This document shows positions 1,171 to 22,485 of a DNA stretch of 32,000 nt, one piece after another. The notes beneath the pieces were generated by a model. That model made no database searches. It saw nothing but the letters and a program-made list of their open reading frames with translations, and was not told the origin of the DNA. The position numbers and the translations under genes were made by a program. Source of the stretch: Bacteroidota bacterium (lineage in GTDB: Bacteria; Bacteroidota; Ignavibacteria; UBA10030; UBA8401); NCBI GenBank assembly GCA_035506275.1, contig DATJPT010000011.1, forward strand, positions 25,513 through 57,512. The letters are read 5' to 3'. Within the stretch, counting starts at the first letter, position 1, and each line of letters starts with the position of its first letter.

Positions 1171-1189
1171 CTTACGAAGGAACGGACTC

Positions 1190-3159: not shown

Positions 3160-3268
3160 CGCGGATGCCGTCGGGGACCGTCCCGCGCTGCTGAGGCGAG
3201 ACAATACCATGGCCTGAGGCTTCTCGTCTATTTTTTTTCTATATTATTCTTACTCTTTCATTCTGATA

Positions 3269-4213: not shown

Positions 4214-4989
4214 ACTTTAAGGACCAAGTGCTGCTCCCGGCTTATGCGCTTTGGATGCGCGAACTCATCAGATTTTTCCGCCAACGGTCAAGGATGATCG
4301 GGGTTATCGGATCGCCGATCCTTTTTTGGTTCTTCATCGGATCGGGGCTCGGCACTTCCTTTAAGACAACATCTTCTCTTGGGGGGGCGAATTACCTCGA
4401 ATATTTTTATCCAGGGACGTTACTATTGATTATGTTGTTCACTGCAATCTTTTCCACGATATCGATCATCGAGGACAGGTCCGAGGGGTTGCTTCAATCC
4501 GTGCTTGTTGCCCCTGTCTCTGGGGCCAGCATTGCACTCGGCAAGATCCTTGGAGGCACAACGCTCGCGGTGATCCAAGCGGTCATTTTTTTGGCTCTCG
4601 CGCCACTGGTTGGTTTTTCTTTTACACTTCTCCAATTTATCGCGCTTTTGGTGTTGCTCATTGCGATAGGGTTCGGTCTCACGGGACTTGGATTTCTCAT
4701 CGCATGGAGAATGGAATCGACGCAGGGATTCCATGCGATCATGAATTTGTTTCTTATCCCATTGTGGCTTCTCTCCGGATCGCTCTTCCCGATGGAAGGG
4801 GCGCCCGGATGGCTGAAATTCGTCATGGCCGTCAACCCGCTGACATACTCAATTTCTTCTACGCGCATGATGCTCTACCACCGGGTATCGAGTCAAGCGT
4901 CTGATTTTCTTGTCGCATGTAGTATCATTCTCATCTTTTGTTTAGCTGTCTTCTTAGGGTCAATGATATCAGTTAGGAATAAAGCATGA
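4210..4989 (+). CDS. ABC-2 type transporter permease
   Basis: About six hydrophobic segments in 259 aa. ATGA overlap with the upstream ATPase gene. This is the typical pairing of an ABC-2 permease with a DrrA-like ATPase. Confidence 0.8.
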   Translation: MNFKDQVLLPAYALWMRELIRFFRQRSRMIGVIGSPILFWFFIGSGLGTSFKTTSSLGGANYLEYFYPGTLLLIMLFTAIFSTISIIEDRSEGLLQSVLVAPVSGASIALGKILGGTTLAVIQAVIFLALAPLVGFSFTLLQFIALLVLLIAIGFGLTGLGFLIAWRMESTQGFHAIMNLFLIPLWLLSGSLFPMEGAPGWLKFVMAVNPLTYSISSTRMMLYHRVSSQASDFLVACSIILIFCLAVFLGSMISVRNKA

Positions 4990-5615
4990 AAGCCTCGGAC
5001 GCTTCATTTCGATCGATTTTTCTTTGGGGGTTTTTAGGGTTTGTCATTGTTGCGGTTGTGTTCTCGTTTTTGTACACGCAGCTAAAGGCCCCGCCGAAGA
5101 ACGCATTGCCCCGACTCAGCATTGTTCCCGATGTGACCCTTACTGAACGGAGCGGCGAGAAACTTCCGTTATCGGACTTGAAAGGGAAGGCCTGGATCGC
5201 CGATTTTATCTTTACAAACTGCGGCGGGAGCTGCCCCATTATGTCGAGCACGATGGCCAGCTTCCAGGAACAATTAAAAAATGAGAAGAACGTGCTTCTG
5301 GTCTCGTTCAGCGTCGATCCGAAACGGGATACTCCTGATGTCCTTAGAGATTATGCAGAGCTCTATAAAGCCTCGCCGTCACGCTGGTTATTTCTCACCG
5401 GAGAAAAAGAAAAGATAAATTTCCTGACGCGCGACGGATTCCACCTCGCCGTCGCCGCGGATTCCGGCTCCGCTATCGAGCCGATCATTCACAGCACGAT
5501 GTTTGTCCTGGTCGACAGGCAGGGGGTCATTCGCGGATATTACGACTCGAGCGACGAAAAGTCCCTGGAAAAGATCGTCGCCGATGCGAAAGATCTCGCT
5601 TCGGAAAAAAATTAG
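4986..5615 (+). CDS. SCO1/SenC family copper chaperone (thioredoxin fold, membrane anchored)
   Basis: N-terminal TM anchor (IFLWGFLGFVIVAVVFSFLY), copper-binding CxxxC in FIFTNCGGSCPIM and a downstream conserved His (IIHSTMFVLVD). ATGA overlap with the permease gene. Confidence 0.85.
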   Translation: MKASDASFRSIFLWGFLGFVIVAVVFSFLYTQLKAPPKNALPRLSIVPDVTLTERSGEKLPLSDLKGKAWIADFIFTNCGGSCPIMSSTMASFQEQLKNEKNVLLVSFSVDPKRDTPDVLRDYAELYKASPSRWLFLTGEKEKINFLTRDGFHLAVAADSGSAIEPIIHSTMFVLVDRQGVIRGYYDSSDEKSLEKIVADAKDLASEKN

Positions 5616-5619
5616 CACC

Positions 5620-6033
5620 ATGGATCTGAAGATCTTCCCGACCATCAATGCAATCCTGAATGGAGCGACGGCCCTTCTTCTTGTCGCCGGCTATCTATTG
5701 ATCCTGAATAAGAAGCGCTCGATCCACAAAAAGGTCATGCTTGCCGCATTTGCAACGTCGATCACGTTTCTGATTTCTTACCTGTATTACCACGCTCACG
5801 TTGGTTCAGTTCCATTCAAGGGGGCCGGTTTCATTAGGCCGGTCTATTTTACCATCCTTATCTCGCATACGATCCTTGCCATGGCCATTGTCCCCATGGC
5901 GATCGTGACGCTCACTCGGGCCCTCTCGTCGCGTTTTGACAAGCATCGAAAGCTTGCACGATTGACATTGCCGTTATGGCTCTACGTCTCTGTCACCGGT
6001 GTAGTGGTGTATGTCATGCTCTACCATTTGTAA
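5620..6033 (+). CDS. DUF420-type small membrane protein (CtaM-like oxidase accessory protein)
   Basis: Four hydrophobic segments in about 137 aa, starting at the internal ATG at 5620 just after the SCO1 stop. The sequence pattern (FPTINAILNG..., YHAH...) and the placement beside SCO1/ctaB are typical of DUF420 proteins. The 5503-5619 part of the track ORF overlaps SCO1 in another frame and is discounted. Confidence 0.7.
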   Translation: MDLKIFPTINAILNGATALLLVAGYLLILNKKRSIHKKVMLAAFATSITFLISYLYYHAHVGSVPFKGAGFIRPVYFTILISHTILAMAIVPMAIVTLTRALSSRFDKHRKLARLTLPLWLYVSVTGVVVYVMLYHL

Positions 6034-6056
6034 CCCAGACTATCGTCAAGAAGAAC

Positions 6057-9029
6057 GTGAGCGGATTCAATAACATAGGGTCCCGGGTTTCGTTCCTTCT
6101 TTATCTTTTCTTCACGGGCGTTTCGCCTTCCTTCGCTCAAGTATACCCGTTCGACCATTACACCTCAAAAGACGGATTGCTGATGGATTACGTCATCGCC
6201 CTATGCTGCGACTCTCGCGGATACGTCTGGGTCGGAACAAATGACGGCGTGAGCCTCTACAATGGGGAGGTTTTTCGGAATTTTACAGTCGCCGACGGGC
6301 TGTCGTACAGCCGTGTCAATTGCATCGTGGAAAGCCGGGCTCACCCCGGCACGATATGGATTGGGACAAACGGAGGAGGCATAAGCAAATGGAGGAGTAA
6401 CAAGTTCCAGACATACCGAATTAACGGAGAACATTCTTCCAACATTATCACTGCGTTAATGGAGGACCGCCACGGCGTACTCTGGTGCGGGACGGACAAT
6501 GGGTTGTTTACGCTGGCAGATAATGAGTGCAGACGGATACGTCCGGCGGTCATAAAGGGGACGGTGGTCGGAGTTGCCCAATCACCGGACGGAACGATAT
6601 GGGTCCTTATGTCCGACCAGCTTTATGCTTTCCCTCCAGATTCTGATGATCCGCGGGTCGTCAATCTTCACTGTAAGCCTGCGATAGTTCCTCAATGTAT
6701 ATATGCATCTGATGATACGACGTTCTGGATCGGAATGTCGAATGGCGGGATCGTGCAAATGCGCGACGGTGAAATTCTGCGCAGGCTCGTCATAAAAAAT
6801 GCTATCATCAATGTTATGCTGGACGATCGCGACGGCCTTTTGTTCGGGACGACAAGGGGGATTTATCGTCTTCCGGATACCGGCTCTGCGCCCATTCCTT
6901 TTTGTTCGACTTCGAACGGTTTGCCGGAGGATTTTATTTCCTCCGCCGCTATTGACATGGAAGGAGATCTGTGGCTCGGCCTGGGGAGCAAGGGAGTTGC
7001 GAAGCTGGCGAACCGGACCGTGTTTACGTATCCGCTTAGCGGCCTGATATTCCCGCCCAACGGCTCTGCGGCCGCAATGGATCAGGATGAACACCTGTGG
7101 GTTGCCTCGTGGAATGGGATCTATGAATTATGGAAGGGAAACAATGCTGCATGGCAGTCGACGCTGCATAAAGAGTTAAGCGATGTCACTGATCAAAAAC
7201 CATACACAGTATTGTTCGACCCCCCCTCCTCATTGTGGGCGGGTTTCCAGGGGGGGGATATCATCTGTTTCGCGATCGGATCACGGAAAGAAGGTCCGTC
7301 CTCACTGACTATCCAGCACCGGTGGCGTCAAGGGAGCGAATATCGTTCCGGGGGGATGCCGATTTTTTTGTTCAAGGACAGGGAAGGATATCTTTGGTGC
7401 AGCATTTCCGACAATCGCGGTCTCTATCTTTTTGATCCAAAGCGGGCGAAGCCTTTTTTGCGATCGTACACGGCGGAAGACGGAATGCCGGATAATTCAA
7501 CGCGGGCGATTTGTGAAGACCGTGAAGGCAACTTTTGGTTCGGGGGCTACGACAACGGCTTGACGTTTCTTCCCTCATCAAAGAAATTTCAAGGCGGAGG
7601 CAGGCGGTTCACGAGTGAGGATGGGCTTCCGAACCAATCGATCCGTTCGATCCTCCAAGACAGCGCGGGGGTCATCTGGGCCGGGACACGCTACGGGGGT
7701 ATAGCATACCTCCGCGACTCCATGTTCCACCCACTTTCTTTGAACGAGGGCCTTCTGAGCACTGCAGTGTGGTCGATGATCCTCGACGCCGATAGGCACC
7801 AGTGGTTAGGTACCCAACTGGGGTTTCAGGAAATGACGGCTTCCAGCATGATCAAGTTTCATTCAAAAAAAGAGCTGAGCGGGCCTCCGGTCTATGCCTG
7901 CGGAGAAATGAAAGACGGGGTGTTGTGGCTCGTGACCGATGCGGGCATAACGTTTTACGACCGCCGGCATGACGTGTCGGGGAATATCCCTCCTCCGGTC
8001 TATATTTCGCGCATTCTTGTCAGCGGCGTGGAGGTAGACGCCGATTCATCTCATGAATTTGCCTACGACCAGAATAACATTTCGCTCGACGTCATCGGTT
8101 TGAGCCTGAAGGACGAAAAAGCGGTCCAGTATCAGTACAAGCTTTTGGGGGCCGACACCGGATGGAGCGCTCCAACGCGAAATCATCTCATCATGTTTGC
8201 TGCTCTGTCGCCCGGGAATTATTCCTTTATGGCGCGGGCAATCAACGGGAACGGGACGGTGAGTACCCAAGCCGCTACTTTCTCGTTCAGAATTGTTCCG
8301 GCTCTTTGGAGGCAATGGTGGTTTATTGTTTCCAGCGTATTGATTGTCGTTGCGGTTTCCTTCCTTTTGGTGAGGTCCCGTGTGAAACGGTTGATCGAAA
8401 TTGAGAGGATCAAATCACGCCTTGCGGCCGATCTGCACGACGACATTGGCGCAGGCCTGACGCGTATCGCGATACTCTCTTCCGTCATCGAGCGGGACAT
8501 GCCGGGCAAGGCGGGCGTTGATCCGGGCGAAAGCACCGCCGGTGAATCGCTAAAAAGGATCGGGGACACCGCCCGCGATCTTGTCGAATCGATGAGCGAT
8601 GTTGTATGGTCGCTCGGTTTGACAGAAGAGCCTCTTGAGCGCTTGGTTCAGCGCCTTCGCTTGTTTGCATTTGAGGCGTGTGAAGCAAAGAACATTGTGC
8701 TAAAATTCACCATCGACGACAACATCTTTGCCCTTCATTTCCCTCCTGAGCGTGCGAGGAATATTTTGCTCTGCGCCAAGGAAGCGATCACCAACATCGT
8801 CCGCCATTCCGACTGTTCGGAAGCGAACATGGAATTTTTACAGGACGGAAACCGCGTTGTGCTGACTGTGACCGACGACGGGAAAGGTTTCCAGGCCGGC
8901 GGTTCGCATACAGGGCACGGATTGACGAACATGAAAAAGCGCGCCGAGGGCTCAGGTGGCTCGTTCACGATGATTTCGCAGGCAGGGAAGGGGACTCGAA
9001 TTCAAGCGATATTCCCCGCCGCCCCATAA
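6057..9029 (+). CDS. sensor histidine kinase with periplasmic two-component-regulator propeller repeats and a Y_Y_Y domain (HisKA_3/NarX-like core)
   Basis: Signal/anchor FLLYLFFTGVSPSFAQ. Many W-x-G-T/GGL repeats (VWVGTNDGVSLY, IWIGTNGGGISKW, LWCGTDNGLFTL, FWFGGYDNGLTFL, IWAGTRYGGIAYL...). Y_Y_Y-like YQYKLLGADTGWS. TM helix WWFIVSSVLIVVAVSFLLV. H-box LAADLHDDIGAGLTRI. ATPase G-boxes DDGKGF and GHGLTNMKKRAEGSGGSF. The start is uncertain: GTG at 6057 avoids overlap with the upstream gene, whereas the track start at 5976 overlaps it by 58 nt. Confidence 0.85.
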   Translation: MSGFNNIGSRVSFLLYLFFTGVSPSFAQVYPFDHYTSKDGLLMDYVIALCCDSRGYVWVGTNDGVSLYNGEVFRNFTVADGLSYSRVNCIVESRAHPGTIWIGTNGGGISKWRSNKFQTYRINGEHSSNIITALMEDRHGVLWCGTDNGLFTLADNECRRIRPAVIKGTVVGVAQSPDGTIWVLMSDQLYAFPPDSDDPRVVNLHCKPAIVPQCIYASDDTTFWIGMSNGGIVQMRDGEILRRLVIKNAIINVMLDDRDGLLFGTTRGIYRLPDTGSAPIPFCSTSNGLPEDFISSAAIDMEGDLWLGLGSKGVAKLANRTVFTYPLSGLIFPPNGSAAAMDQDEHLWVASWNGIYELWKGNNAAWQSTLHKELSDVTDQKPYTVLFDPPSSLWAGFQGGDIICFAIGSRKEGPSSLTIQHRWRQGSEYRSGGMPIFLFKDREGYLWCSISDNRGLYLFDPKRAKPFLRSYTAEDGMPDNSTRAICEDREGNFWFGGYDNGLTFLPSSKKFQGGGRRFTSEDGLPNQSIRSILQDSAGVIWAGTRYGGIAYLRDSMFHPLSLNEGLLSTAVWSMILDADRHQWLGTQLGFQEMTASSMIKFHSKKELSGPPVYACGEMKDGVLWLVTDAGITFYDRRHDVSGNIPPPVYISRILVSGVEVDADSSHEFAYDQNNISLDVIGLSLKDEKAVQYQYKLLGADTGWSAPTRNHLIMFAALSPGNYSFMARAINGNGTVSTQAATFSFRIVPALWRQWWFIVSSVLIVVAVSFLLVRSRVKRLIEIERIKSRLAADLHDDIGAGLTRIAILSSVIERDMPGKAGVDPGESTAGESLKRIGDTARDLVESMSDVVWSLGLTEEPLERLVQRLRLFAFEACEAKNIVLKFTIDDNIFALHFPPERARNILLCAKEAITNIVRHSDCSEANMEFLQDGNRVVLTVTDDGKGFQAGGSHTGHGLTNMKKRAEGSGGSFTMISQAGKGTRIQAIFPAAP

Positions 9030-9047
9030 CTACATATCTATGCAGTT
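9028..9047. promoter_or_regulatory. 7-2-7 inverted repeat AACTACATA-TC-TATGCAGTT (copy 1), candidate response-regulator operator
   Basis: Near-perfect palindrome (one mismatch) overlapping the kinase stop codon and 49 nt upstream of the response-regulator ATG. An almost identical 19-20 nt sequence recurs at 9839-9858. Confidence 0.4.
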
Positions 9048-9095
9048 GCCTCGCCGTAGGGAAAACAGTAGATTCCTTTTGCCAAATTTCCAACA

Positions 9096-9758
9096 ATGAA
9101 GACAAACTCGAGAGCAACGGACGCTGATGACGTCATCCGTGTCGCCGTTATCGATGACGACGATGAGATGCGAAAAGGGATCCGAATGATCATCGACCAG
9201 GCGGAAGGCTTTGCCTGTGCCGATTATACAAGCGGATCGACCTTTCTTGAGACCTTTGATGAAAACCCGCCCGATGTCGTGCTGATGGACATCGGCATGC
9301 CCGACAAGTCGGGCATTGAATGGGTTGAGATCCTCAAAGAACGCTATCCGCATATCCAGTGCCTGATGCTGACCGTCCACAGTGACGAAGAGAAGATATT
9401 CCAATCACTACGAGCGGGAGCGGTGGGTTATCTGCTCAAGACGACAACACCCGAGAAGCTTCTCACGTCCATCAAGGAAACGTACGCGGGCGGAGCGCCG
9501 ATGTCGGGAGAAGTCGCACGGAAAGTATTGACATATTTTCAGCAGCCAAAGCCATCAACGGTCTTCTCCACGCTGTCTCAGCGGGAACTCGACGTTCTTC
9601 TCGCGTTAACGGAAGGATATACATACAAGGTCATTGCAGATAAGTTATTTGTCAGCGTGAATACCGTCCGCTTTCATCTCCGCAATATTTATGCAAAGCT
9701 CCATGTTCGATCCCGCACCGAAGCGGTGGCAAAAGCATTAAAAAACAAGGCCCTCTAA
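9096..9758 (+). CDS. two-component response regulator, NarL/FixJ (LuxR-type HTH) family
   Basis: REC domain (VAVIDDDDEMR, phospho-acceptor context VVLMDIGMPDKSG, LTVHSDEE, GAVGYLLK). C-terminal LuxR HTH (LSQRELDVLLALTEGYTYKVIADKLFVSVNTVRFHLRNIYAKLHV). Confidence 0.9.
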   Translation: MKTNSRATDADDVIRVAVIDDDDEMRKGIRMIIDQAEGFACADYTSGSTFLETFDENPPDVVLMDIGMPDKSGIEWVEILKERYPHIQCLMLTVHSDEEKIFQSLRAGAVGYLLKTTTPEKLLTSIKETYAGGAPMSGEVARKVLTYFQQPKPSTVFSTLSQRELDVLLALTEGYTYKVIADKLFVSVNTVRFHLRNIYAKLHVRSRTEAVAKALKNKAL

Positions 9759-10088: not shown

Positions 10089-11864
10089 ATGAAGAACCTT
10101 TTCCGTTTTCTGTTTGCGCTCCTTTCGCTATTCTGGGGCTTCAGCTCTGTGTTTGCCCAGTGGGCCAGCGATCCGTCTAAGAACACTCCTGTCGACACTG
10201 GTGGCCATACGGCAGCTGATGTGGTAATGTTGAAAGACGGCAACGGAGGAGCTTTCATCGTTTGGGATGATCTGCGCGAGGGAGATAAGAATCCAAAGAT
10301 TTTCGCCCAACATCTGGATAAGAATGGCTATGCGGTGTGGGCTGCCAACGGCGTGGAAATCTCTCCCCCCGGCCTCATTCAGGCCCATCCTCAGGCAGCC
10401 GCGGTTGGAGACGGCGGAATTATTGTCTCGTGGGAGGAGGACTACAGAGATTCCGCGCTCGGAAGCGCCGCTCCGGCGATTTTTGCCCAGCGTATCAGTG
10501 TTCACGGTACGCGAATGTGGAGAGATTCTGCCTTGCAGATCGCAGGTCCGCTTCCCTTTCAGCTCTTCTATCCACTCGGCGTAACGACTGCGTGTACTTC
10601 GGACGGTTCTGGAGGCGCCTACGTTGCCTGGGCTAATCTTTACAGCGGGTTTCAGAATCTGGTCATCTCCCGGATTGACAGCTCGGGCAACATCCGGTGG
10701 TCATCCTCGGCAATGAACGGCTTTAGCGGCGGTGCCTTGCCGGTCGGTGGCTATGACGATTTGCGGCTTTTGCAGAACGGAACCTCCGGCGTAATCATTG
10801 CGTGGACCGATGTGCGAAACGCTTTCTCAACTGGAATTTCCCTGTTCGCGCAACGACTCGACAGCGCCGGTAATCGTCGTTGGGATACGACGGGGGTTGC
10901 CCTCGCGCCGAAGCCTTCGTTCCTGCAAGAGCAAGCAAACGAAGTGATCGCCTCTGATAATGCTGGCGGCGTCATCTATGCCTGGGAACAATCGCAAAGC
11001 GGATCATCCCCCCATGGATATGCAGGTCGTGTCAATGCGTCCGGAGCGCTCACCTGGATTTCGCCTTCAGATTCACTCGGAGTTATGGCGGACTCCAATA
11101 AATCGACCGGCCAGGAAAATTTATCGTTAATTCCGGACGGAAGCGGCTCAGTCCTTCTGACGTGGTCAGATGGCGAGAACTATGCGTATGTTCAGAAAAT
11201 TGCCTCCGACGGATCGTTGCCGTGGGGAGGGAACCCTCATGCTTTCGCTGCAAACACCAGCGCTGAAGTGTTGACGACAGACGGCAGCGGAGGCGCGATC
11301 GTGGCCTGGAGTCAAGGCCTGCAAAACGGCGTCAACATTTTTGCTCAACGGGTGAATAGCAGTGGGCAGCCCGTGTGGTCGAACGCTACCAACAACAATG
11401 AGGGCAATCCCGTTTCTACCACCCCCTCCACGTTCCAGACGAAACCTGTCATCGTCTCCGATGATGCGGGAGGAGCGATCGTGGCTTGGTACGATCTCCG
11501 CGCCTCGTCATTCGGCGGACCGGCCGATATTTATGCCCAGCACGTATCGAGCAGCGGCAGCGTGACGAAAGTAAATCCACACGCCTCGGCCGTGGCGACC
11601 GAATTTTCTCTCCAGCAAAACTATCCTAACCCGTTTAATCCCTCGACGCAGATTCAATTTTCCGTTCCCTCTGACGGGCGAGCGGTATTGAAGGTCTTCA
11701 ACATTCTCGGACAGGAAGTTGCAACATTGTTTGATGGAGCTGCAACGGCCGGGGAATCCCATCAAGTGACGTTTGATGCTTCGCGGTTAGCCAGCGGAAT
11801 ATATTTTTCGCGGCTGGAATTTGGCGGGAAGATGCAGATCAGGAAGATGTTGCTCCTGAAATAG
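10089..11864 (+). CDS. secreted repeat (beta-propeller-like) protein with a T9SS C-terminal sorting domain
   Basis: Signal peptide MKNLFRFLFALLSLFWGFSSVFAQ. Eight copies of a 45-60 aa repeat (D-G-x-GG-a-h-V-x-W ... I-F/Y-A-Q-R/H-h-x-x-x-G-x-x-x-W). The C-terminal about 85 aa (FSLQQNYPNPFNPSTQIQFSVP...GIYFSRLEFGGKMQIRKMLLLK) match the Por secretion tail pattern. Confidence 0.8.
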   Translation: MKNLFRFLFALLSLFWGFSSVFAQWASDPSKNTPVDTGGHTAADVVMLKDGNGGAFIVWDDLREGDKNPKIFAQHLDKNGYAVWAANGVEISPPGLIQAHPQAAAVGDGGIIVSWEEDYRDSALGSAAPAIFAQRISVHGTRMWRDSALQIAGPLPFQLFYPLGVTTACTSDGSGGAYVAWANLYSGFQNLVISRIDSSGNIRWSSSAMNGFSGGALPVGGYDDLRLLQNGTSGVIIAWTDVRNAFSTGISLFAQRLDSAGNRRWDTTGVALAPKPSFLQEQANEVIASDNAGGVIYAWEQSQSGSSPHGYAGRVNASGALTWISPSDSLGVMADSNKSTGQENLSLIPDGSGSVLLTWSDGENYAYVQKIASDGSLPWGGNPHAFAANTSAEVLTTDGSGGAIVAWSQGLQNGVNIFAQRVNSSGQPVWSNATNNNEGNPVSTTPSTFQTKPVIVSDDAGGAIVAWYDLRASSFGGPADIYAQHVSSSGSVTKVNPHASAVATEFSLQQNYPNPFNPSTQIQFSVPSDGRAVLKVFNILGQEVATLFDGAATAGESHQVTFDASRLASGIYFSRLEFGGKMQIRKMLLLK

Positions 11865-12818: not shown

Positions 12819-13391
12819 TCAATCTTTCGGCGGTTCGAAGCAGTTGCGGCACCGCGCCTCGTACACATCTTTGGCTCCGACAACAACGCGTTCGTGAGAC
12901 TCGGAAGTGCGCTGGGTCCGGTCGGCAGGATTTCCGCACACAACGCAGATTGCAAGAGTTTTCGTAATGTACTCCGCCACAGCAAGAAGCTGCGGCATCG
13001 GTTCGAATGGCTTGCCGCGGTAATCCTGGTCGAGCCCCGCCACGATCACGCGCTTTCCGGCATTCGCGAGACGTTCGCACACATCGACGATGGTCGGAGC
13101 AAAGAACTGCCCTTCGTCGATGCCGATCACTTGAGCGTCGGCAGACTGTTTCAATATTTCCTCGGGCGTATCGACGACTGTCGAAACGAGCGACTGTTCG
13201 CTGTGCGACACGATATGGCTGGAGCTGTAGCGATTATCGATGCGCGGCTTGAAGATCATGACCTTTTGCCGGGCGATCTGTGCGCGGCGCATGCGGCGGA
13301 TCAGCTCTTCGGTCTTTCCGCTGAACATGCATCCGGCGATGACTTCGATCCATCCGGTATTTTTCGGTGAAGAATGAGGGGCGTCTTCCAT
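12819..13391 (-). CDS. tdk: thymidine kinase
   Basis: From the internal Met (CAT at 13389-13391): [33 protein letters not shown] (P-loop), [25 protein letters not shown] and the zinc ribbon CVVCGNPA...ARCRNCF. The length of 191 aa is typical. The upstream 87 codons of the track ORF have no support. Confidence 0.9.
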
Positions 13392-13504
13392 GAGAAAAAA
13401 TATTCTGATATATGGCTGCTGAATTGTGGAAAAATATAGAAAAATGAGGACGGAAATGCAAGGAATGATTGAGAGCCGACCTGCAACGGGAAATGAGAAA
13501 GAAA

Positions 13505-14761
13505 TTATTGAAGCGTGATCTTCGTGATCTCCGGCGGGCAGTTGACTCTGAACGGAACACCGACGGTTCCGATTCCGCGCGTGACGTACATTTGTGAATT
13601 TCCCAGCTTGTAGAGTCCCCAGACATATTTGGAGAAGAGCGCTGCAGGACAAACGATCAAATTTCCAACCTTGGCAAAGACAATTTGGCCGCCATGGGTA
13701 TGACCGGCGAGGGTAAGGTCGATGTTATGATCCGCGAACGATTCAAGGTAATACGGTTTATGGCAAAGCAGGATCCTCGGGTTTGGATTCTGGACGGAGG
13801 ATAACGCTGTGTGAAGATATTTTTCCGGCGTTCCTTCGATGGGTATATCGTCGACTCCAACAAGGTTGATGAACGAATTTCCCTTCGTAATTCTAACGGC
13901 ATCATTCCGCAAAAGCTTGATCCCGCATCCGTCCACTTCCTTCGCAACGACGTCGACATTGGCGTAATAGTCGTGGTTCCCCAGGCAGCCGAAGACACCA
14001 TATGGGGCGTGAAGAGAGGAAAATGCTTCAACGAAAGGATAGACCTCTTCAGTTTGGCTGTTAACAAAATCCCCCGGGACAAAAATGACATCGGTCTTAA
14101 GCCCGTTGAGTGCGGCGACATAATCATCCATTTCCGGTTTCGTCATGAATGCGCTGGAATGAATGTCGCTCATCAAACCGATAGTGAATCCCTTGAATTC
14201 ATCCGGCAAATTCTGGATCCGAACCGTCCGCTCAATGATGTCGTAATCATTCCGGTCGATGATGCCCTTGGTCGCTCCGGCAAAAGAATATCCCGACAGG
14301 GCAATAGCTCCGGTTCTCAGGAAGGTCCGCCGCGATCCATCGAATCTCTGGAACTTCTGTGTGGATTTCATGACAATAATTTTTTCTTTCACGGGGGCGA
14401 ACATTTTCCCTACATGCAACAGGGCCGTGAACGGCATTCGAAGAATTCGTACAATCGATAGGACCACGAAGAGAAAAAACGTCGCTCCTTGCCACACGTA
14501 AATCGGGTAAGCTATGCCGTAGAAGAACCAATGCGGCAGTTCATTCGTGAATGAGTGGATGAAGAGAAGAGGAAGGAACGCGAGATTGAAAAACCCGAAG
14601 ACGTACGGCACTGCTTTTGCGAACCAGCGGGGGGCCGTTGAAAAGCTCTTAACGAACCTTTCTGTTTTCCTATACAGAAACCATTGGATAGTAAAAATTA
14701 AGATCGGAAAGATGACTCGAAAGAAAAAATAAAGGGGTGTTCCGCTCATTGTCGACCGCAA
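13505..14761 (-). CDS. membrane-anchored metallophosphoesterase (calcineurin-like, YkuE/YaeI-like)
   Basis: About four N-terminal TM segments, then the phosphoesterase motifs SDIH, GDFVN, GNHD and GHTHGGQ. Confidence 0.8.
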
Positions 14762-16977: not shown

Positions 16978-17005
16978 TTGACAAAACTAATTTTTCTTTT
17001 ATATT
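16978..17005 (+). promoter_or_regulatory. sigma70-like promoter candidate (TTGACA-16-TATATT) for the five-gene stator/rotor operon
   Basis: TTGACA at 16978-16983, a 16-nt AT-rich spacer and TATATT at 17000-17005. It lies about 135 nt upstream of the first ATG (17143). No other gene lies between. Confidence 0.45.
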
Positions 17006-17142: not shown

Positions 17143-18270
17143 ATGCAATCGCGGCGCAATTATCTTCTGGTAGCATTATTGTTCGTCTTTGCAGTCTCCT
17201 TTCTCTCCTACACAAGTAAAGCCCAGCAGCAACCGCCAACTCAAGATTCTCAGTCAGAAACAAAAGGGGTATCGATTGAGAACTCGAAGCTTATCTCTAT
17301 TTTCCCAAAATTTGATATTGCGCTTGATACCGCGCTGTCTTCAATGACACCGGTTCTGAGGGAAGTCAGTCCAAGCATCAGAACGCTGCTCCTTTACAAG
17401 ACAAAAGTCCGGTGGCCGTTCAAGGAAGAATTGTCGTATTCAGAGATCCAGTTTCTCTCGAGCTATTTTGAGGGGAAATTAAAAAATGCTTTGACCAAAG
17501 ACCACCGTTTCGCTACAGTGGGCGCACAGGATTTGAAAACGCTTTCGTTCAAAGCAACCGACAGCACGCTCCAGGTGAAGAACACCTACACCGAGGATGA
17601 AATTCGCACCTATGCGAAAGCCCACAATGTCGACGGTATAGTCTCAACCGACGTGTTGGTTTCATCCAACCAGATCATCATGTTTGTGAATATCAACGAC
17701 CTGAACGGCATCACGGTCTGGAGCAAAGAGTTGAAGGCCGACTATCGTGTGCTCCCTTCGGATGCGGGGGCGGAGCTTGCCGCTGAATATGCGTTGAAGC
17801 GAAAAACGGGGCTTATTGAAAATTACCTCACGTTTGGCTTCAATCTAGGGTCCTCGTATACGCTTGGCGTCAAAGACAGCGGGAACAACGTCGGTTATTA
17901 TTCTGTCGGCTACCGGCTGAACGAGATGGCGACCATTCTGAACTTCCTGAAGTTCTATCTTGACGGCCGTTTAATGGGAACCTCTAAATACGGGTTGATG
18001 GGAATCATCGCTATGCCGGGATTTTCGTTCGAGATCATTGGGAACGATCAAATCGGTCCGGGAATTTTGATGCTCGACGTGGCGGGAGGGTTCAACATTT
18101 CCTTCAAGAACAGCGGCATCGCAGAGTCGTACTACGGAGGACTGTCGCTGCGGCTGAGCCGCAACATCGGCATTACCGGTTTCTACAACATGATCTCCAT
18201 CAACAAGACCTTCGACCATTCGGATGTTGCCGGACCGCTCTACGGTATCCAAGTGAATTTTGTTCTGTGA
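17143..18270 (+). CDS. secreted protein with an LpoB/FlgO-like N-terminal alpha/beta domain and a Gly/aromatic-rich C-terminal region (putative outer-membrane beta-barrel); operon gene 1
   Basis: Signal peptide MQSRRNYLLVALLFVFAVSFLSYTSKAQ. The N-domain ends in ...AKAHNVDGIVSTDVLVSSNQIIMFVNINDLNGITVWSKE, the pattern seen in LpoB/CsgG/FlgO-type periplasmic domains. The last 170 aa or so form alternating hydrophobic strands rich in G/Y/F (YLTFGFNLGSSYTLGV, VGYYSVGYRLN, GFSFEIIGN, GLSLRLSRNIGITGFYNMISI, LYGIQVNFVL). No family was recognised by name. Confidence 0.6.
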   Translation: MQSRRNYLLVALLFVFAVSFLSYTSKAQQQPPTQDSQSETKGVSIENSKLISIFPKFDIALDTALSSMTPVLREVSPSIRTLLLYKTKVRWPFKEELSYSEIQFLSSYFEGKLKNALTKDHRFATVGAQDLKTLSFKATDSTLQVKNTYTEDEIRTYAKAHNVDGIVSTDVLVSSNQIIMFVNINDLNGITVWSKELKADYRVLPSDAGAELAAEYALKRKTGLIENYLTFGFNLGSSYTLGVKDSGNNVGYYSVGYRLNEMATILNFLKFYLDGRLMGTSKYGLMGIIAMPGFSFEIIGNDQIGPGILMLDVAGGFNISFKNSGIAESYYGGLSLRLSRNIGITGFYNMISINKTFDHSDVAGPLYGIQVNFVL

Positions 18271-18295
18271 TGAACATGCTCATCGAGGATAGTTT

Positions 18296-19003
18296 ATGAA
18301 AAGAGTTTTAGGTGTCTCATTAATGGTATGGTCTTTAGCGCTGGGTGCCGCGGCTCAGGAAAATTATAGCGCACCGTCCGATTCGGCATCGAAGAGCGCG
18401 GCGAAAGTTCAGCCGGCCTCTTCCAAGGAGACCGGAACTCCATCCGCTCCCGCTTCGGTCAAACTGAATACACCGACGCTCAACATGGATGTCCTGCTCG
18501 ACCTCTACAATAAGGACATCGACTTCACGATCGATTATTCGGGACAAGGGCTTCGGAAGAACGTCCAAGGAGGAAATGAGGAAGAAGAACAGCCAAAGCA
18601 AACTCCTGCACGAAAGAAGAGCACGAACGGCGCGGCCGATGAATTGCTGAAGCCTCAAAAGGAAGATCTCGCATCGGACATTCAGGACATCGTCGACACC
18701 TCGAACGTCAAAAAGAAACAGCCGCGGCAGGGGACGTACACAAAGGACGATGCCGATTACAACAGGGCGCTCAACAGTCTTCAGGAAGCGCAGACACTTT
18801 TCTCCGAGCGCCGGTATGCACAGGCGCTCGCTGAAATCAATAAATCAGTGGATGCCGCGCCGAACATGGCGCTTGCGTACGCCGTACGCGGATCGATTTA
18901 CTACATGCTTCGGCAGTTCCCCGAGGCGAAGCAGAGTTGGGAAAAAGCTCTCGAGCTCGACCCGTCGATGGACAATGTGCGGGCCATACTTTATCGGATG
19001 TAA
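18296..19003 (+). CDS. secreted TPR-repeat protein with a long low-complexity K/E/Q/S-rich linker; operon gene 2
   Basis: Signal peptide MKRVLGVSLMVWSLALGAAAQ. Disordered-looking region of about 130 aa. C-terminal TPR units (YNRALNSLQEAQTLFSERRYAQALAEINKSVDAAPNMALAYAVRGSIYYMLRQFPEAKQSWEKALELDPSMDNV). Confidence 0.7.
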   Translation: MKRVLGVSLMVWSLALGAAAQENYSAPSDSASKSAAKVQPASSKETGTPSAPASVKLNTPTLNMDVLLDLYNKDIDFTIDYSGQGLRKNVQGGNEEEEQPKQTPARKKSTNGAADELLKPQKEDLASDIQDIVDTSNVKKKQPRQGTYTKDDADYNRALNSLQEAQTLFSERRYAQALAEINKSVDAAPNMALAYAVRGSIYYMLRQFPEAKQSWEKALELDPSMDNVRAILYRM

Positions 19004-19021
19004 TTAACTGAAAGGCCACGT

Positions 19022-19870
19022 ATGAATTCAACTTTTATCGGTTATGTCCTTTTTGCTATTGCTGCGTATGTGCTTTTGATCATCGGCGCAGAGTCGGAGA
19101 CGGTCGATGCTCTGCAGAAGGGATATGTTCCGGAATCGCTCATTCATTATATCCACATCCCCGGCATCATCTTCGTTTTTTTCGGCGTCAGCTCTTCGAT
19201 GATGATCAGCTACAATTTCCGGGAGTTGTTTGGAGCCGCGCGTGCTCTCTATTTTGTGTACATACGAAACAGGATCAATTTCCTGGTCTATCTCGAGACC
19301 ATCAAGGATATTGCCCAATACTCCAACACACACGACATTGAATCCCTCGAGGATTATGCCAATCAGATAAAGTATCCTTTTTTGCGCGACGGCGTTCTTA
19401 TGCTTGTCAACGGCTATAAGAAGGAAGAGATCAAAGAGATCCTCGATGCCAGGATTGATAACGAGGCACAGCGTGAATCGACGGATGTCAACGTCTTCCG
19501 GGCGGCAGCCCGTTATTCCCCGGGCTACGGCATGCTTGGCACGACGGTGGGTCTGATCCAGATGTTCTCGACAAAGATCGATGCTGCAGCGGGCTTCGGC
19601 CCGATTCTGCAGGCATTGGCCGTCGCCTTTACGACGACGCTGTACGGCTTGTTTCTGTCCAACTTTATCTTCGCGCCGTTCGCCGATAAGATCGAGAAAC
19701 GGACCGATGAGGAGGCCCTCCTGAAAAGCATGATCGTTGAAGGCCTTTGTCTGATCAAGGACAAGAGACATCCGGTCTTCATTCAGGACAAGCTTTCGTC
19801 GTATATCCCGCAGAGCCGCGCATTGTCGGTGCCGTCAGTATCGCAGCTTTCACCCGAAGGCGGAGCGTAG
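19022..19870 (+). CDS. motA: MotA/PomA-type stator proton (ion) channel subunit A; operon gene 3
   Basis: Four-TM architecture with a cytoplasmic loop of about 100 aa between TM2 and TM3. This fits flagellar MotA, not the 3-TM ExbB/TolQ. It aligns by eye to MotA: ...ESLEDYANQIKYPFLRDGVLMLVNGYKKEEIKEILD..., TM3 SPGYGMLGTTVGLIQMF and TM4 AFTTTLYGLFLSNFIFAPFADKIEKR. Both MotA-type conserved prolines are present. Confidence 0.85.
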   Translation: MNSTFIGYVLFAIAAYVLLIIGAESETVDALQKGYVPESLIHYIHIPGIIFVFFGVSSSMMISYNFRELFGAARALYFVYIRNRINFLVYLETIKDIAQYSNTHDIESLEDYANQIKYPFLRDGVLMLVNGYKKEEIKEILDARIDNEAQRESTDVNVFRAAARYSPGYGMLGTTVGLIQMFSTKIDAAAGFGPILQALAVAFTTTLYGLFLSNFIFAPFADKIEKRTDEEALLKSMIVEGLCLIKDKRHPVFIQDKLSSYIPQSRALSVPSVSQLSPEGGA

Positions 19871-19874
19871 GCGT

Positions 19875-20543
19875 ATGAGACGACGCGACAGAAAAAAGTC
19901 GGAAGAACAGCACTGGCAAGTCAGCTATATCGACTTGTTGACGGCGATGCTTGCATCGTTTACGCTGCTGTTATCGCTGTCGATTCCCGACCAGTCGAAA
20001 CTCGACAGCCTGGCTTCATCCGTCACCGAAGCCGCGAAACAGCAAGCAAACCTTGGAACGCTGTCGAGAGAGCTGATGACCACGATCGAAAAGAACTCCT
20101 CGTTGAAAGGACAGGTCAACGTCGTGATGACCGACGCCGGCATCGAGCTGAGGTTCGGCAGCAATCTGCTGTTCCCCCCCGGGAAAGCTGCGCTGCGGCC
20201 GGAAGGATACGACGCTATTTTCAGCATCGGAAAGATCCTGGGCTATTTCGTCAAGGCTCGCAACGCATTTATATCGGTGGAAGGGCATACCGACGATACG
20301 CCATTGCGGAGCACCGTGGAATTCCGGTCGAACTGGGAGTTATCGTCTGCCCGAGCAACGGAAGTGGTTCACTACCTCCAGGACACGGTAGCGATCGAAG
20401 GGAAGCGCCTGTCGAGTACCGGCTTTGCCGATGCACGTCCTCAAAACAAAGAAAAAGACCCTGTGACCGGACAGTTTACCGAGAAAGCCCGGAACGACAA
20501 CCGCCGAGTTGTCATTCGGATTTACTACCACAACGACGTTTAA
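19875..20543 (+). CDS. motB: MotB-type stator subunit B with an OmpA-like peptidoglycan-binding domain; operon gene 4
   Basis: N-terminal WQVSYIDLLTAMLASFTLLLSL (the single TM helix preceded by the invariant channel Asp, as in WKIAYADFMTAMMAFF of MotB). C-terminal OmpA-like motifs VEGHTDDTPL, SNWELSSARATEVVHYL, GFADARP and NRRVVIRI. It starts 4 nt after motA. Confidence 0.85.
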   Translation: MRRRDRKKSEEQHWQVSYIDLLTAMLASFTLLLSLSIPDQSKLDSLASSVTEAAKQQANLGTLSRELMTTIEKNSSLKGQVNVVMTDAGIELRFGSNLLFPPGKAALRPEGYDAIFSIGKILGYFVKARNAFISVEGHTDDTPLRSTVEFRSNWELSSARATEVVHYLQDTVAIEGKRLSSTGFADARPQNKEKDPVTGQFTEKARNDNRRVVIRIYYHNDV

Positions 20544-20580
20544 AGACGAAATTGCTATTTCAAAACATCCTGGAACACAT

Positions 20581-22389
20581 ATGAAAACTCGATTGACAAA
20601 GATTATCCTTCTGCTTGCGGTGGTAGCGCAGGCGAAGTTGTTTGCCGTCGACCTTGAGCTTGAGAAGAAAAAAATGGAACGGGATCTGGAGGACCGCATC
20701 TCAATGGAGATCCGCCGGTACTTCTCGGACCTCAATTTTCTCGTGACCGCGGAAGTGACGCTCGTCGATCTTTCGACGCCGGCAAAGTCCAAGGGAGACA
20801 ACAGAGATTTCCTTCTTCCCGGCGTTTCAGGATTCCAGGCGCAGCCGCAGACATCGGACGAAGTTGAAAAGCCGCAGTTCGGCGTCGAGTCGATCGTCGT
20901 TAAGATGCTCATCGATAAGAATCGAACCCCTGAAGAGAAAGACCTGCTGACGAACATCGCGTTCTACACCGGCAAGTTGAACAAGGTCCGGGGCGATCGG
21001 GTCGACCTCCAGGAGATGTCGTTCCCGGCCAGCACATTGCAGATTCAGCGCGAACAGCAGAAGGCCGAACAGGAAAAACAGATACAGCAGCTCGAAAAAG
21101 AAAAGCAGGACGCAGAATTGCGTGCAGGGGAAAAATCCTCGAACGATCTTACGCCGGCAAAGCCGCAGGATTCTTTTTTTAACCCCACAACGCTGCTGTT
21201 GATTGCGCTCGGTGTGCTCCTGCTGATTCTTATCGTTGTCCTTCTTTCACGAGGGAAGAAAGAATCTTCCGCGGAAGCGATGATGCAGCAGTCGCCGCAG
21301 GCCGAGGAGCTTCCCGCCGTCTCTGCTCAACAGGCCATTGCCGATTCGAACGCAGAATACCAGGAAGCCATAGAGGTCGATAAGGTGAAATCGAACCTCA
21401 TCGTCTCATGCGCCGGGGAATCAGATCTGACGTCGCACGTCATCAGGGACATGATCGCGGATGCGAATCAAAAAGAGAGGCTGACCGTCATCATCGGTCA
21501 ACTGGGAAATAACGTCCTGCAGGTGATGCGCGATCATTTTTCCATCGAGGAGATGAAGGCGCTTCAGGCATTGACGCTGGAAAAGCGCGAAAGCACGCCG
21601 GCCGAAGCGCGAGAGGCGCTGACGTTCTTCCAGAATCAGCTCGCCGTGAAAAGATTCTCGGAAGCCGGAAATTCGAAGCAGAACCCGTTTGCGTTTCTCG
21701 AAAAGTTATCCGAGCCTCAACTGTACCTGCTGATGAAGGACGAACCCCCGGGAATAATCGCCATTATCTTGTCTCAGTTGACGACGCCGATCGCAAGCTC
21801 GATGCTGAAGAATTTGCCGTCGATGCAGCAAGGAGAGGTTGCACTGGAGCTTGGAAAACTCCGCCGGCTGACGTCGGACACGTATGTCTCCGTGGCAAAG
21901 CAGCTTGCTGCAAAGGCCGCCACGATCCCGGTGATCAACAACGTCCAGGTTCAGGGAACGGACCTCCTTCTCGACATCTTCGATAATATCGATGAATCGG
22001 CCGAATCCTCGATCATTGAATTCATTAAAGTGGTGAACCTGGACCTCTACCGCGAGATCACGAGCCAGCGCGTTTCCTTCAACGCGATCAATCAGCTGGA
22101 TGAAAGGGTTCTTCGTCAGATCGTCAAGGATATCTCCGGCGACGAGATCGCGATCGCCCTAAAGAATGCTCCTCATGAAATTTCCGAGCGGTTCCTCTCG
22201 GTGCTTCCTTCAAAGTCAAGGATCATTCTCGAGGACCGGCTGAATTCTATGAAAGCGGTCTCGCCGGACGATGAATTGAAGGCGCGCCGGCGAATTACCC
22301 GGATGGTCAGGCAGTATATCAAGGCCGGCGGTGTCCAGGCAGCTTCCCTCGAAACGGGGGAAGAAACCGAAGAAGCACAGGTTCAATGA
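20581..22389 (+). CDS. bitopic membrane protein: N-terminal signal/anchor, FliF/YscJ-like ring-building-motif periplasmic domain, coiled-coil linker, TM helix and cytoplasmic three-domain FliG-like module; operon gene 5
   Basis: Start taken at ATG 20581 (MKTRLTKIILLLAVVAQAKLFA). The periplasmic part has an alpha-beta-beta-alpha-beta pattern (LERDLEDRISMEIRRYFSDLNFLVTAEVTLVDL ... VESIVVKMLIDKNRTPEEKDLLTNIAFYTGKLNKVRGDRVDLQEMSF). A Q/E/K-rich linker follows, then the TM helix TTLLLIALGVLLLILIVVLLS. The cytoplasmic region aligns by eye to FliG. The M domain is LSEPQLYLLMKDEPPGIIAIILSQLTTPIASSMLKNLPSMQQGEVALELGKL (cf. EHPQ-tIALiLs-L-p--Aa-vL--Lp). The C domain is FNAINQLDERVLRQIVKDISGDEIAIALKNAPHEISERFLSVLPSKSRIILEDRLNSMKAVSPDDELKARRRITRMVRQYIKAG (cf. 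FEDI-KLDDRSIQRVLREVD--DLALALKGAS-EL-EKI--NMSKRAA--L-EDLE-MGPVR--DVE-AQQ-I----RRL). Confidence 0.75.
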   Translation: MKTRLTKIILLLAVVAQAKLFAVDLELEKKKMERDLEDRISMEIRRYFSDLNFLVTAEVTLVDLSTPAKSKGDNRDFLLPGVSGFQAQPQTSDEVEKPQFGVESIVVKMLIDKNRTPEEKDLLTNIAFYTGKLNKVRGDRVDLQEMSFPASTLQIQREQQKAEQEKQIQQLEKEKQDAELRAGEKSSNDLTPAKPQDSFFNPTTLLLIALGVLLLILIVVLLSRGKKESSAEAMMQQSPQAEELPAVSAQQAIADSNAEYQEAIEVDKVKSNLIVSCAGESDLTSHVIRDMIADANQKERLTVIIGQLGNNVLQVMRDHFSIEEMKALQALTLEKRESTPAEAREALTFFQNQLAVKRFSEAGNSKQNPFAFLEKLSEPQLYLLMKDEPPGIIAIILSQLTTPIASSMLKNLPSMQQGEVALELGKLRRLTSDTYVSVAKQLAAKAATIPVINNVQVQGTDLLLDIFDNIDESAESSIIEFIKVVNLDLYREITSQRVSFNAINQLDERVLRQIVKDISGDEIAIALKNAPHEISERFLSVLPSKSRIILEDRLNSMKAVSPDDELKARRRITRMVRQYIKAGGVQAASLETGEETEEAQVQ

Positions 22390-22410: not shown

Positions 22411-22445
22411 GGAGGAGCACTTGTTTCAGGTGCTCCTCTTTTTTT
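22411..22445 (+). terminator. Rho-independent terminator closing the stator/rotor operon
   Basis: Perfect 9-bp GC-rich stem GAGGAGCAC / GTGCTCCTC (22412-22420 / 22430-22438) with a 9-nt loop, followed by seven Ts (22439-22445). It lies 22 nt after the stop codon. Confidence 0.8.
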
Positions 22446-22485
22446 GGGGATTTTTTCCTATTTCAGGATTGTTAAAATAGTAGTG

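Follow-up and report, generated by a model that had tools for sequence, protein, structure and literature searches.

FliG-type torque rings are not known to occur outside flagella, and to our knowledge the other motors of the MotAB family (Exb, Tol, Gld, Agl and Zor) drive different partners. A natural FliF-FliG fusion has been described in the Chlamydiaceae; it has about 330 amino acids (aa) and is composed of RBM2, a further unassigned ring-building motif (RBM) and the middle domain of FliG only (Bergeron 2016, PMC4768692), and it was discussed in relation to type III secretion, not to MotAB (PMC4768692). In Salmonella, FliF-FliG fusions of engineered or spontaneous origin assemble rings and support motility (PMC4768692), and an engineered Vibrio FliFG fusion also forms rings (PMC11481574; PDB 8z4d/8z4g). 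Here we analysed a stretch of 32,000 nucleotides (nt) from a Bacteroidota bacterium of the Ignavibacteria (GCA_035506275.1, contig DATJPT010000011.1, positions 25,513 to 57,512), which is called the window below and from whose first nucleotide all window coordinates are counted. At 20581-22389 on the + strand, directly behind genes of MotA and MotB type, we found one gene in which an RBM3 domain of FliF type, one transmembrane (TM) helix and the domains of FliG are joined in a single protein of 602 aa. In all probability this fusion serves as rotor in a motor which is driven by ions, is not flagellar and has not been described before.

The open reading frame (ORF) of the fusion extends from an ATG at 20581 to the stop codon at 22389. 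An alternative TTG start at 20509 would give a longer protein, but it overlaps motB, and all homologues start at the MK... of 20581. At the N-terminus, residues 5-23 are hydrophobic (KD19 maximum 2.03), with A-Q-A, and from hydropathy residues 1-23 (20581-20649) are either a signal peptide, with A-Q-A as probable cleavage site, or an uncleaved anchor; short hydrophobic N-termini with small-residue motifs are common to all homologues. The next part is the periplasmic ring-building domain (residues 25-150, 20653-21030), followed by a Q/E/K-rich helical linker (residues 151-202, 21031-21186), which was assigned by its composition and by a model helix at 153-183. The single TM helix occupies residues about 203-226 (21187-21258; KD19 3.41, model helix 202-226), and one TM helix is found at the equivalent position in nearly all family members. 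Directly after this helix (about 203-224) stands RGKK, so that by the positive-inside rule the C-terminus is cytoplasmic. The cytoplasmic part is all-helical in the AlphaFold model and comprises a FliG_N-like helical region (residues 249-365, 21325-21675), the FliG middle domain (372-449, 21694-21927) and the FliG C-terminal or torque domain (460-585, 21958-22335), all of these parts lying on the + strand. These features establish the fusion as a single-pass inner-membrane protein with an exported N-domain.

An earlier note on this DNA, made from the letters and their translation, had proposed the same succession of N-terminal hydrophobic segment, periplasmic domain, linker, TM helix and cytoplasmic region, and its nucleotide ranges, which correspond to residues 28-148, 200-223 and 266-582, agree with ours. 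The alpha-beta-beta-alpha-beta order which it had proposed for the periplasmic domain is also the order in the AlphaFold models (predicted local distance difference test, pLDDT, 70 for the full length and 73 for the N-domain alone), where a helix to residue 47 is followed by a strand (53-63), a loop (64-99), a strand (100-111), a helix (117-130) and a last strand (140-145). The peptides quoted in support were all present, except that the first helix reads MERDLEDRISMEIRRYF, with MERDL and not LERDL.

Through structure comparison by Foldseek, the model of the N-domain gave FliF S-ring/RBM3 chains as all of its best 16 hits in PDB (E about 1e-4, TM-score 0.43-0.55), and the same FliF structures were also matched by the full-length model. 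The sequence profile of the broad family (36 sequences) matched FliF chains in PDB with E values of 9e-7, over the whole domain, and 1.3e-6. The match to Salmonella FliF falls into two parts, 235-280 and 368-439, which are RBM3a and RBM3b flanking the beta-collar, and the alignment includes a common RGD...F(P) motif, with RGD...FP at the last strand of the N-domain. No match in PDB was obtained with the N-domain profile of the close family. For Pfam YscJ_FliF_C, the window sequence alone scored 14.7 bits and stayed below the cut-off of 23.8, and several distant relatives reached 26-33 bits, above the cut-off, over the same region. Together these matches demonstrate homology of the periplasmic domain to RBM3, the ring-building domain of FliF. 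RBM1 and RBM2 gave no match (Pfam YscJ_FliF), and only about 125 periplasmic residues are available ahead of the linker. Between beta1 and beta2 lies an insertion of 38 residues, in which an LPG motif is near-invariant; the two Salmonella matches are separated by about 88 residues (FliF 281-367), and the beta-collar of FliF has roughly 110. Hence the ring-building motif, the reduction of the FliF periplasm to that one motif and the natural fusion of FliF to FliG, all suggested in the earlier note, were recovered by independent means, with RBM3 and FliG domains in a single ORF.

The sporulation protein SpoIIIAG (5wc3) was matched by the broad-family profile at E 1.7e-3. An OsmC/Ohr fold for the N-domain was rejected, as it ranks below all FliF hits and the exported domain contains no cysteine; OsmC/Ohr proteins are cytoplasmic thiol peroxidases. 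We also rejected a match of the linker and TM region to the C-terminal part of FliF (PDB, E 0.036), which does not keep the register of the RGD motif and probably reflects composition.

In the cytoplasmic part, Pfam FliG_C (PF01706) was found with 70.2 bits (cut-off 23.3) and FliG_M (PF14841) with 45.8 bits (cut-off 25). A family profile of 19 sequences matched Thermotoga maritima FliG (1lkv) in PDB at E 6e-32. With the full model, Foldseek aligned full-length Aquifex FliG (3hjl) over 323 columns of 321 at E 3e-11, and FliG_C (1qc7) was matched with a TM-score of 0.89 and a root-mean-square deviation of 1.6. Residues 245-370 of the window sequence gave no direct match to Pfam FliG_N (PF14842), which scored 31-32 bits (cut-off 25) at the equivalent place in two orthologues of 42-43% identity (P0053 and P0055). 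These results show a divergent FliG with M and C domains, which is probably complete with an N-like domain; all three had previously been aligned by eye. MgtE_N was tried as the closer family and rejected, with 15 bits against 70 for FliG_C; a cytoplasmic region related to MgtE_N alone is therefore not what the profiles indicate. The NCBIfam equivalog TIGR00207 (fliG) reached 91.5 bits and thus remained under its cut-off of 226.7. The FliM-binding motif EHPQR is absent, and in its place are E388-P-P-G391, as the earlier note had read, and Glu423 instead of Arg. The EPPG...E arrangement is conserved within the close family, where only E388 and G391 are invariant. From the TIGR00207 score and the replaced motif, the fusion is not an orthologous FliG. 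The torque helix at 542-560 reads LPSKSRIILEDRLNSMKAV. Through the alignment to T. maritima FliG, the torque charges K264, R281 and D288 of Escherichia coli correspond to K528, K545 and D552, so that three of five are kept. These three residues are near-invariant in the close (Bacteroidota/Ignavibacteria) family, and not in distant lineages.

The fusion gene is the last of five closely packed genes at 17143-22389, all on the + strand and with intergenic gaps of 4 to 37 nt. The order is a 375-aa putative outer-membrane protein, a tetratricopeptide repeat (TPR) protein, MotA, MotB and the fusion. The adjacent stator genes of the earlier note were thus recovered directly upstream. The A subunit (19022-19870) is PomA/MotP-like and has 76.6 bits for MotA_ExbB (PF01618). 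Its best PDB matches are flagellar stators, with E values of 1e-27 to 1e-28 over residues 39-269, and the structural relatives are MotA1 of Paenibacillus, PomA of Vibrio and MotA of Clostridium and Bacillus; the NCBIfam models of MotP, PomA and MotA scored 120-150 bits, below their equivalog cut-offs. The B subunit (19875-20543) contains the MotB plug (PF13677, 38.1 bits) and an OmpA domain (PF00691, 56.9 bits), and the channel Asp is kept in the alignment to Bacillus subtilis MotB (SYIDLLT versus PYADILT). By homology, the stator is of the flagellar clade rather than of the Exb/Tol clade. Considering this homology together with the gene linkage, we infer that the rotor would be driven by the adjacent MotAB.

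In the flagellar motor, an acidic pair of the PomA E96/E97 type faces R281 of FliG, a position which is occupied by K545 in the fusion. The acidic pair of MotA is conserved in the family, with E110 in 22 of 24 sequences and D/E111 in 19 of 24. In the family of the window, N/Q-T in MotA goes together with D-R or E-H in the FliG part; at the loci L024-26, RR of MotA is accompanied by EE of the fusion at the D288/D289 positions, both of which are lost in the family of the window. The Fibrobacterota pair of MotA and fusion does not fit this charge-pair pattern, and the comparison is one of two or three lineages. It is suggestive of an interface between the MotA loop and the FliG torque helix in which both sides may be co-evolving.

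The fusion gene was found in 21 species-level genomes. We obtained 58 full-length clusters with 42-89% identity in metagenomes and in metagenome-assembled genomes (MAGs) labelled Bacteroidota/Ignavibacteria, plus one Fibrobacterota protein of 21% identity; homologues carry database names such as "FliG C-terminal domain-containing protein" or "flagellar motor switch protein FliG". The N-domain profile led to 148 clusters at 50% identity. By HMMs (hidden Markov models) built from the family alignment, at least 116 of the 145 N-domain clusters examined had FliG segments after one TM helix, the other 29 being mostly short fragments. A homology search with the 98-sequence family alignment recovered almost only the close family and added no taxonomic breadth. 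Against the closest orthologue, the ratio of nonsynonymous to synonymous substitution (dN/dS) was 0.005-0.05 in all folded domains, with dS saturated, and FliG_M was the most conserved segment (dN 0.017-0.05). The motifs LPG, RGD and EPPG are near-invariant in the family.

The linkage is conserved too. MotB and/or MotA adjoin the fusion gene at 19 of the 21 genome loci, and at the other two the available sequence begins at the fusion gene. All five genes are present at the 16 loci whose sequence spans the whole cluster. At more distant loci, the downstream housekeeping synteny is lost and the cluster is retained. The five-gene cluster is therefore conserved as a unit across MAGs of Bacteroidota/Ignavibacteria type. 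A decaying remnant of a lost flagellum, or an artefact of assembly or frameshift which joined two genes, would agree with hosts that are known only as MAGs and with the mere fragment of the flagellar parts list present here. In each of 21 species-level genomes, and in over 100 protein clusters, the same ORF runs through without interruption, the dN/dS values are low at saturated dS (0.005-0.05), and LPG, RGD and EPPG are near-invariant. We consider a remnant or artefact extremely improbable, and the possibility named earlier of two genes parted by a frameshift is not borne out.

Domain searches found no flagellar genes in the 32-kb window besides the fusion and MotA/MotB. No export-apparatus, rod, hook or FliM/N genes were found in the window or in ten distant contexts. 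At the loci L001-L029 we found no flagellar neighbours such as fliE, fliG, fliH or fliI; the sole exception of a flagellar family is FlbD, a small protein of flagellar stator operons, whose gene stands directly 5' of motA at two loci (L024:14999-15214 and L025:6613-6828).

A genuine but divergent flagellum, with a fused MS-ring and FliG here and its other genes elsewhere in the genome, might leave such a locus. Its stator would be flagellar-type, as observed, and some Ignavibacteria carry flagellar genes. In Planctomycetaceae contigs, moreover, a true FliF-FliG fusion is located beside fliH and fliI: the 920-aa protein P0267 (L030:10001-15111 and L031:10001-15111) has YscJ_FliF, FliG_M and FliG_C in one ORF and sits directly before fliH and a type III ATPase gene, which identifies it as a FliF-FliG fusion of a flagellar operon. 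With the Chlamydiaceae and Planctomycetaceae proteins, natural fusion of FliF and FliG is not unprecedented. However, the Planctomycetaceae fusion retains YscJ_FliF and flagellar neighbours, whereas the present family has no RBM1/RBM2, which in flagella hold the export gate, and its periplasmic part has only about 125 residues. The FliM-binding EHPQR motif is replaced, TIGR00207 is far from reached (91.5 bits against 226.7), and the conserved neighbours are non-flagellar, with no export, rod, hook or FliM/N gene adjacent in ten independent contexts. A divergent flagellum is in our view decidedly unlikely. As no genes for a switch complex or a type III export gate were found in the window or in the contexts examined, the locus would encode a non-flagellar rotary machine and not a flagellum.

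We put the chance slightly above even that the locus encodes such a machine, in which a ring of RBM3 and FliG would be turned by MotAB without FliM/FliN switch or export gate. The RBM3 domains would oligomerise into a periplasmic ring, as RBM3 of FliF does in the MS-ring of about 33-35 subunits, and this ring would place an equal number of FliG units (1:1) in a cytoplasmic ring beneath the membrane. Stators of MotA5B2 composition would be held to the peptidoglycan by the OmpA domain of MotB and gated by the MotB plug; ion flow through them would push the torque helix of FliG_C, and the ring would turn. The TM helices and the helical stalk would transmit the torque to the periplasmic ring, from which it would reach the TPR protein and the outer-membrane-like protein. 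In canonical FliF there is only a short linker between RBM3 and the TM helix. In the present family the length of this linker is highly variable, with insertions of up to about 80 residues in P0034, P0035, P0036 and P0050, and it appears to behave like an adjustable stalk. Candidate outputs may be surface movement, secretion or assembly of a surface structure, and envelope maintenance.

The two proteins which would receive the torque are both exported. The 375-aa protein (17143-18270, +) carries a signal peptide; its N-terminal alpha/beta region is conserved, and alternating hydrophobic strands make up its C-terminal half, which ends in an invariant F-V-L. It had no match in Pfam, NCBIfam or PDB, even with a 14-sequence profile at E 10, and among its 52 homologues none carries a Pfam domain in the homologous part. 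The gene is present beside the other four at 17 of 21 loci, that is, at all whose sequence reaches that far upstream, and a weak homologue occurs in the Fibrobacterota cluster (E 3e-5). From its pattern of strands, we regard it as a putative outer-membrane beta-barrel partner. Its residues about 50-210 (17143-17800) resemble by eye the strand-helix-strand of periplasmic domains of CsgG/FlgO/LpoB type; profile and PDB searches gave no support for this. The 235-aa protein (18296-19003, +) is composed of a signal peptide, a low-complexity linker and a C-terminal TPR module (TPR_2, 39.5 bits). Homologues of it are found in the clusters L022, L023, L024 and L027, and the same TPR module forms the C-terminus of a partner of about 990 aa at L028/L029 (34% identity, E 6e-6).

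Outside the close family, a Fibrobacterota contig and several unassigned lineages contain the cluster again, but with the genes arranged differently and with additional partners. The order in the Fibrobacterota contig is fusion, a 297-aa protein, TPR, MotA and MotB. At L024-26 it is an AAA protein, a fusion with C-terminal TPR, a 985-aa protein, FlbD, MotA and MotB. L027 contains a protein with multiple RBM3 and TPR, then a TPR protein, the fusion, MotA and MotB; the first of these (P0072, L027:9998-11599), which adjoins the fusion, has two or three tandem RBM3-like domains besides TPR. At L023, TPR and RBM-like neighbours lie beside the fusion, and one adjoining protein (L023:8725-9993) combines an RBM-like domain with a C-terminal TM helix. 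The extra RBM3-like proteins of L027 and L023 hint at periplasmic rings that might be stacked. L028/L029 comprise the protein of about 990 aa, a fusion which bears LysM, MotA, MotB and a two-component system. In this subfamily of the fusion (L028:5844-8267 and L029:10001-12226) the LysM domain is N-terminal to RBM3, and the genes after it encode MotA, MotB and an AraC-type response regulator, with a histidine kinase too in L028. That the whole cluster is a self-contained and widespread non-flagellar rotary nanomachine, with a ring, MotAB, and a stalk and TPR protein leading to an outer-membrane protein, and with no type III export, rod or switch, is a tentative proposal, to which we give a little less than an even chance.

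Several observations weigh against the rotary machine. Two of the five canonical torque charges are lost or reversed, D289 being replaced by R553 and R297 by S561; in this respect the earlier note, which quoted the same helix and described its charges as rearranged, was right. The basic pair of MotA (R88/K89 in PomA) is not basic here, with N102/T103 in the window and N/Q-T in the family. The loop in place of the FliF beta-collar is short and has a pLDDT below 50. At L023 we found no MotAB within 10 kb upstream or about 5.6 kb downstream of the fusion gene, where the contig ends. The LysM of L028/L029 is on the periplasmic side, and if it bound peptidoglycan, free turning of the ring would be difficult to explain. 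The 375-aa protein was assigned to the outer membrane from sequence pattern only, the absence of flagellar genes is that of the window and the loci examined, and rotation, ring formation and output are all matters which we infer.

Some of these points would suit a static, FliG-like docking platform, which is the main rival. In that case a ring or smaller oligomer, fixed in the envelope, would recruit and activate MotAB, whose work would reach the TPR and outer-membrane partners much as in Tol-Pal or TonB systems. In one fusion subfamily, the LysM at the periplasmic end suggests wall attachment. Envelope systems like Tol and Ton typically have partners with TPR and OmpA-type domains, and the charges of the torque helix are only partly canonical. 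The stator, however, is of the flagellar clade with plug and peptidoglycan anchor, and two anchored partners could not move against each other. In addition, RBM3 with the FliG_N-like, FliG_M and FliG_C regions is the exact torque path of the flagellar rotor, with every part under strong purifying selection, and the TonB- or TolA-like elongated partner of the B subunit is lacking. We regard the static platform as fairly unlikely, and the turning ring driven by MotAB as the preferred reading.

The MotAB-like ion channel also brought to mind a Zorya-like anti-phage system or another defence module. MotB matches the ZorB models of PADLOC at E 2e-23, a match which reflects generic MotB homology. 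The other four proteins of the cluster have no counterpart among the PADLOC models, ZorA, ZorC, ZorD and ZorE gave no match, and the locus lies in conserved housekeeping synteny, not in a variable island. A defence function is accordingly very unlikely.

Around the cluster, a sigma-70-like promoter match (TTGACA-16-TATATT, 11/12) was found at 16978-17005 on the + strand, about 140 nt 5' of the first gene; it is a pattern match only, and the region has no more matches of this kind than shuffled sequence would be expected to give. Likewise by pattern match only, a weak terminator-like hairpin with a T-run is located at 22434-22450 (+), 45 nt past the stop codon of the fusion. The remaining genes of the window are housekeeping genes, among them those for cytochrome oxidase assembly, an ABC transporter, a two-component system, a T9SS-sorted protein (T9SS, type IX secretion system) and thymidine kinase, and further for SecG, nucleoside hydrolase, a YgfZ-like protein, GAF, LOG, DapF and PurL. 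The oxidase-related cluster at 202-5615 comprises COX2-like, CtaA, a prenyltransferase of the UbiA family (probably CtaB), an ABC-2 transporter pair and SCO1/SenC, and it indicates an aerobic or microaerobic host. At 5976-9758 a 1017-aa sensor kinase with Reg_prop beta-propeller repeats, Y_Y_Y and HisKA_3/HATPase was found, with a LuxR-type response regulator after it. The 591-aa protein encoded at 10089-11864 has a type IX secretion C-terminal sorting domain (Por_Secre_tail, 37 bits), and therefore the host probably has a T9SS. On the - strand, the longest ORFs of thymidine kinase and of the upstream metallophosphoesterase (12819-13652 and 13505-14761) overlap by about 150 nt. The Pfam TK match begins only at residue 100 of the thymidine kinase ORF, so its true start is probably further downstream.

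In the full-text literature searched, we found no description of a fusion of RBM3 only with a full FliG, accompanied by MotAB, TPR and a partner of unknown family; only flagellar FliF-FliG work and the Chlamydia fusion were met. Term searches in papers on stator evolution, the ancestral flagellum and the Fibrobacter envelope gave none either. This is an absence from the texts searched, and no proof of novelty. The cellulose-adhesion complex of Fibrobacter succinogenes (TPR, OmpA, MotA/ExbB) was considered as a described counterpart and rejected; it is ExbB-ExbD-TonB and contains no FliG.

If the rotary machine is real, the torque path from RBM3 ring and TM helix through FliG N-M-C to MotAB is viable and open to selection on its own, with no export machine, rod or filament. 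The locus would then be a living example of a rotor-stator module that can be parted from the export core of the flagellum, with a bearing on the origin of the flagellar motor, or else a radical re-use of it for an envelope or surface function. It would offer a concrete object for testing the modular origin of that motor, as well as a minimal, switchless rotor with FliF:FliG of 1:1 by construction for structural and biophysical work. It would also point to an energy-dependent envelope function in Bacteroidota/Ignavibacteria-like bacteria, Fibrobacterota and other uncultured bacteria.

Compared with other motors of the inner membrane, the present system resembles ExbBD-TonB, TolQR-TolA, GldLM, AglRQS and ZorAB in that a MotAB-family motor is coupled to an envelope-spanning output; according to the reviews consulted (PMC9389320 and PMC12505986), none of these is known to drive a FliG-type ring. 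With the sporulation ring of SpoIIIAG it shares an RBM3-type fold with an insertion between beta1 and beta2, the similarity being weaker than to FliF, and SpoIIIAG has neither a FliG part nor a stator.

Among the fusions, that of the Chlamydiaceae is similar in its shortened FliF periplasm, TM and FliG-like domain, and in an organism or locus without a full flagellum. It differs from the present family, where RBM3 is the sole ring-building motif, the FliG part includes the torque domain and probably comprises all three domains, and stator genes adjoin. The fusions of Salmonella and Vibrio likewise have FliF covalently joined to FliG at 1:1, but they are laboratory-made and consist of full-length FliF and FliG in a complete flagellum. 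P0267 of the Planctomycetaceae is, like the present protein, a natural single ORF with FliF and FliG domains; unlike it, P0267 keeps RBM1/2 and a flagellar operon.

The nearest described system is the flagellar core of FliF, FliG and MotA/MotB (Salmonella, and PomAB of Vibrio), with which the present locus shares RBM3 with RGD..F, the TM helix and the FliG M and C domains, probably with FliG N as well. A MotA of the flagellar clade with its acidic pair, a MotB with plug, channel Asp and OmpA, and the equivalents of FliG K264/R281/D288 are also common to both. In contrast to the flagellar core, here one polypeptide replaces two, RBM1/RBM2 are missing, a loop of 38 residues stands in place of a beta-collar of about 110 residues, a long and variable helical stalk lies between ring and membrane, and EPPG...E is found for EHPQR. 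Whereas the flagellar core works with FliM/FliN, export gate, rod, hook and filament, no genes for these are located nearby, and the partners here are a TPR protein and an outer-membrane-like protein.

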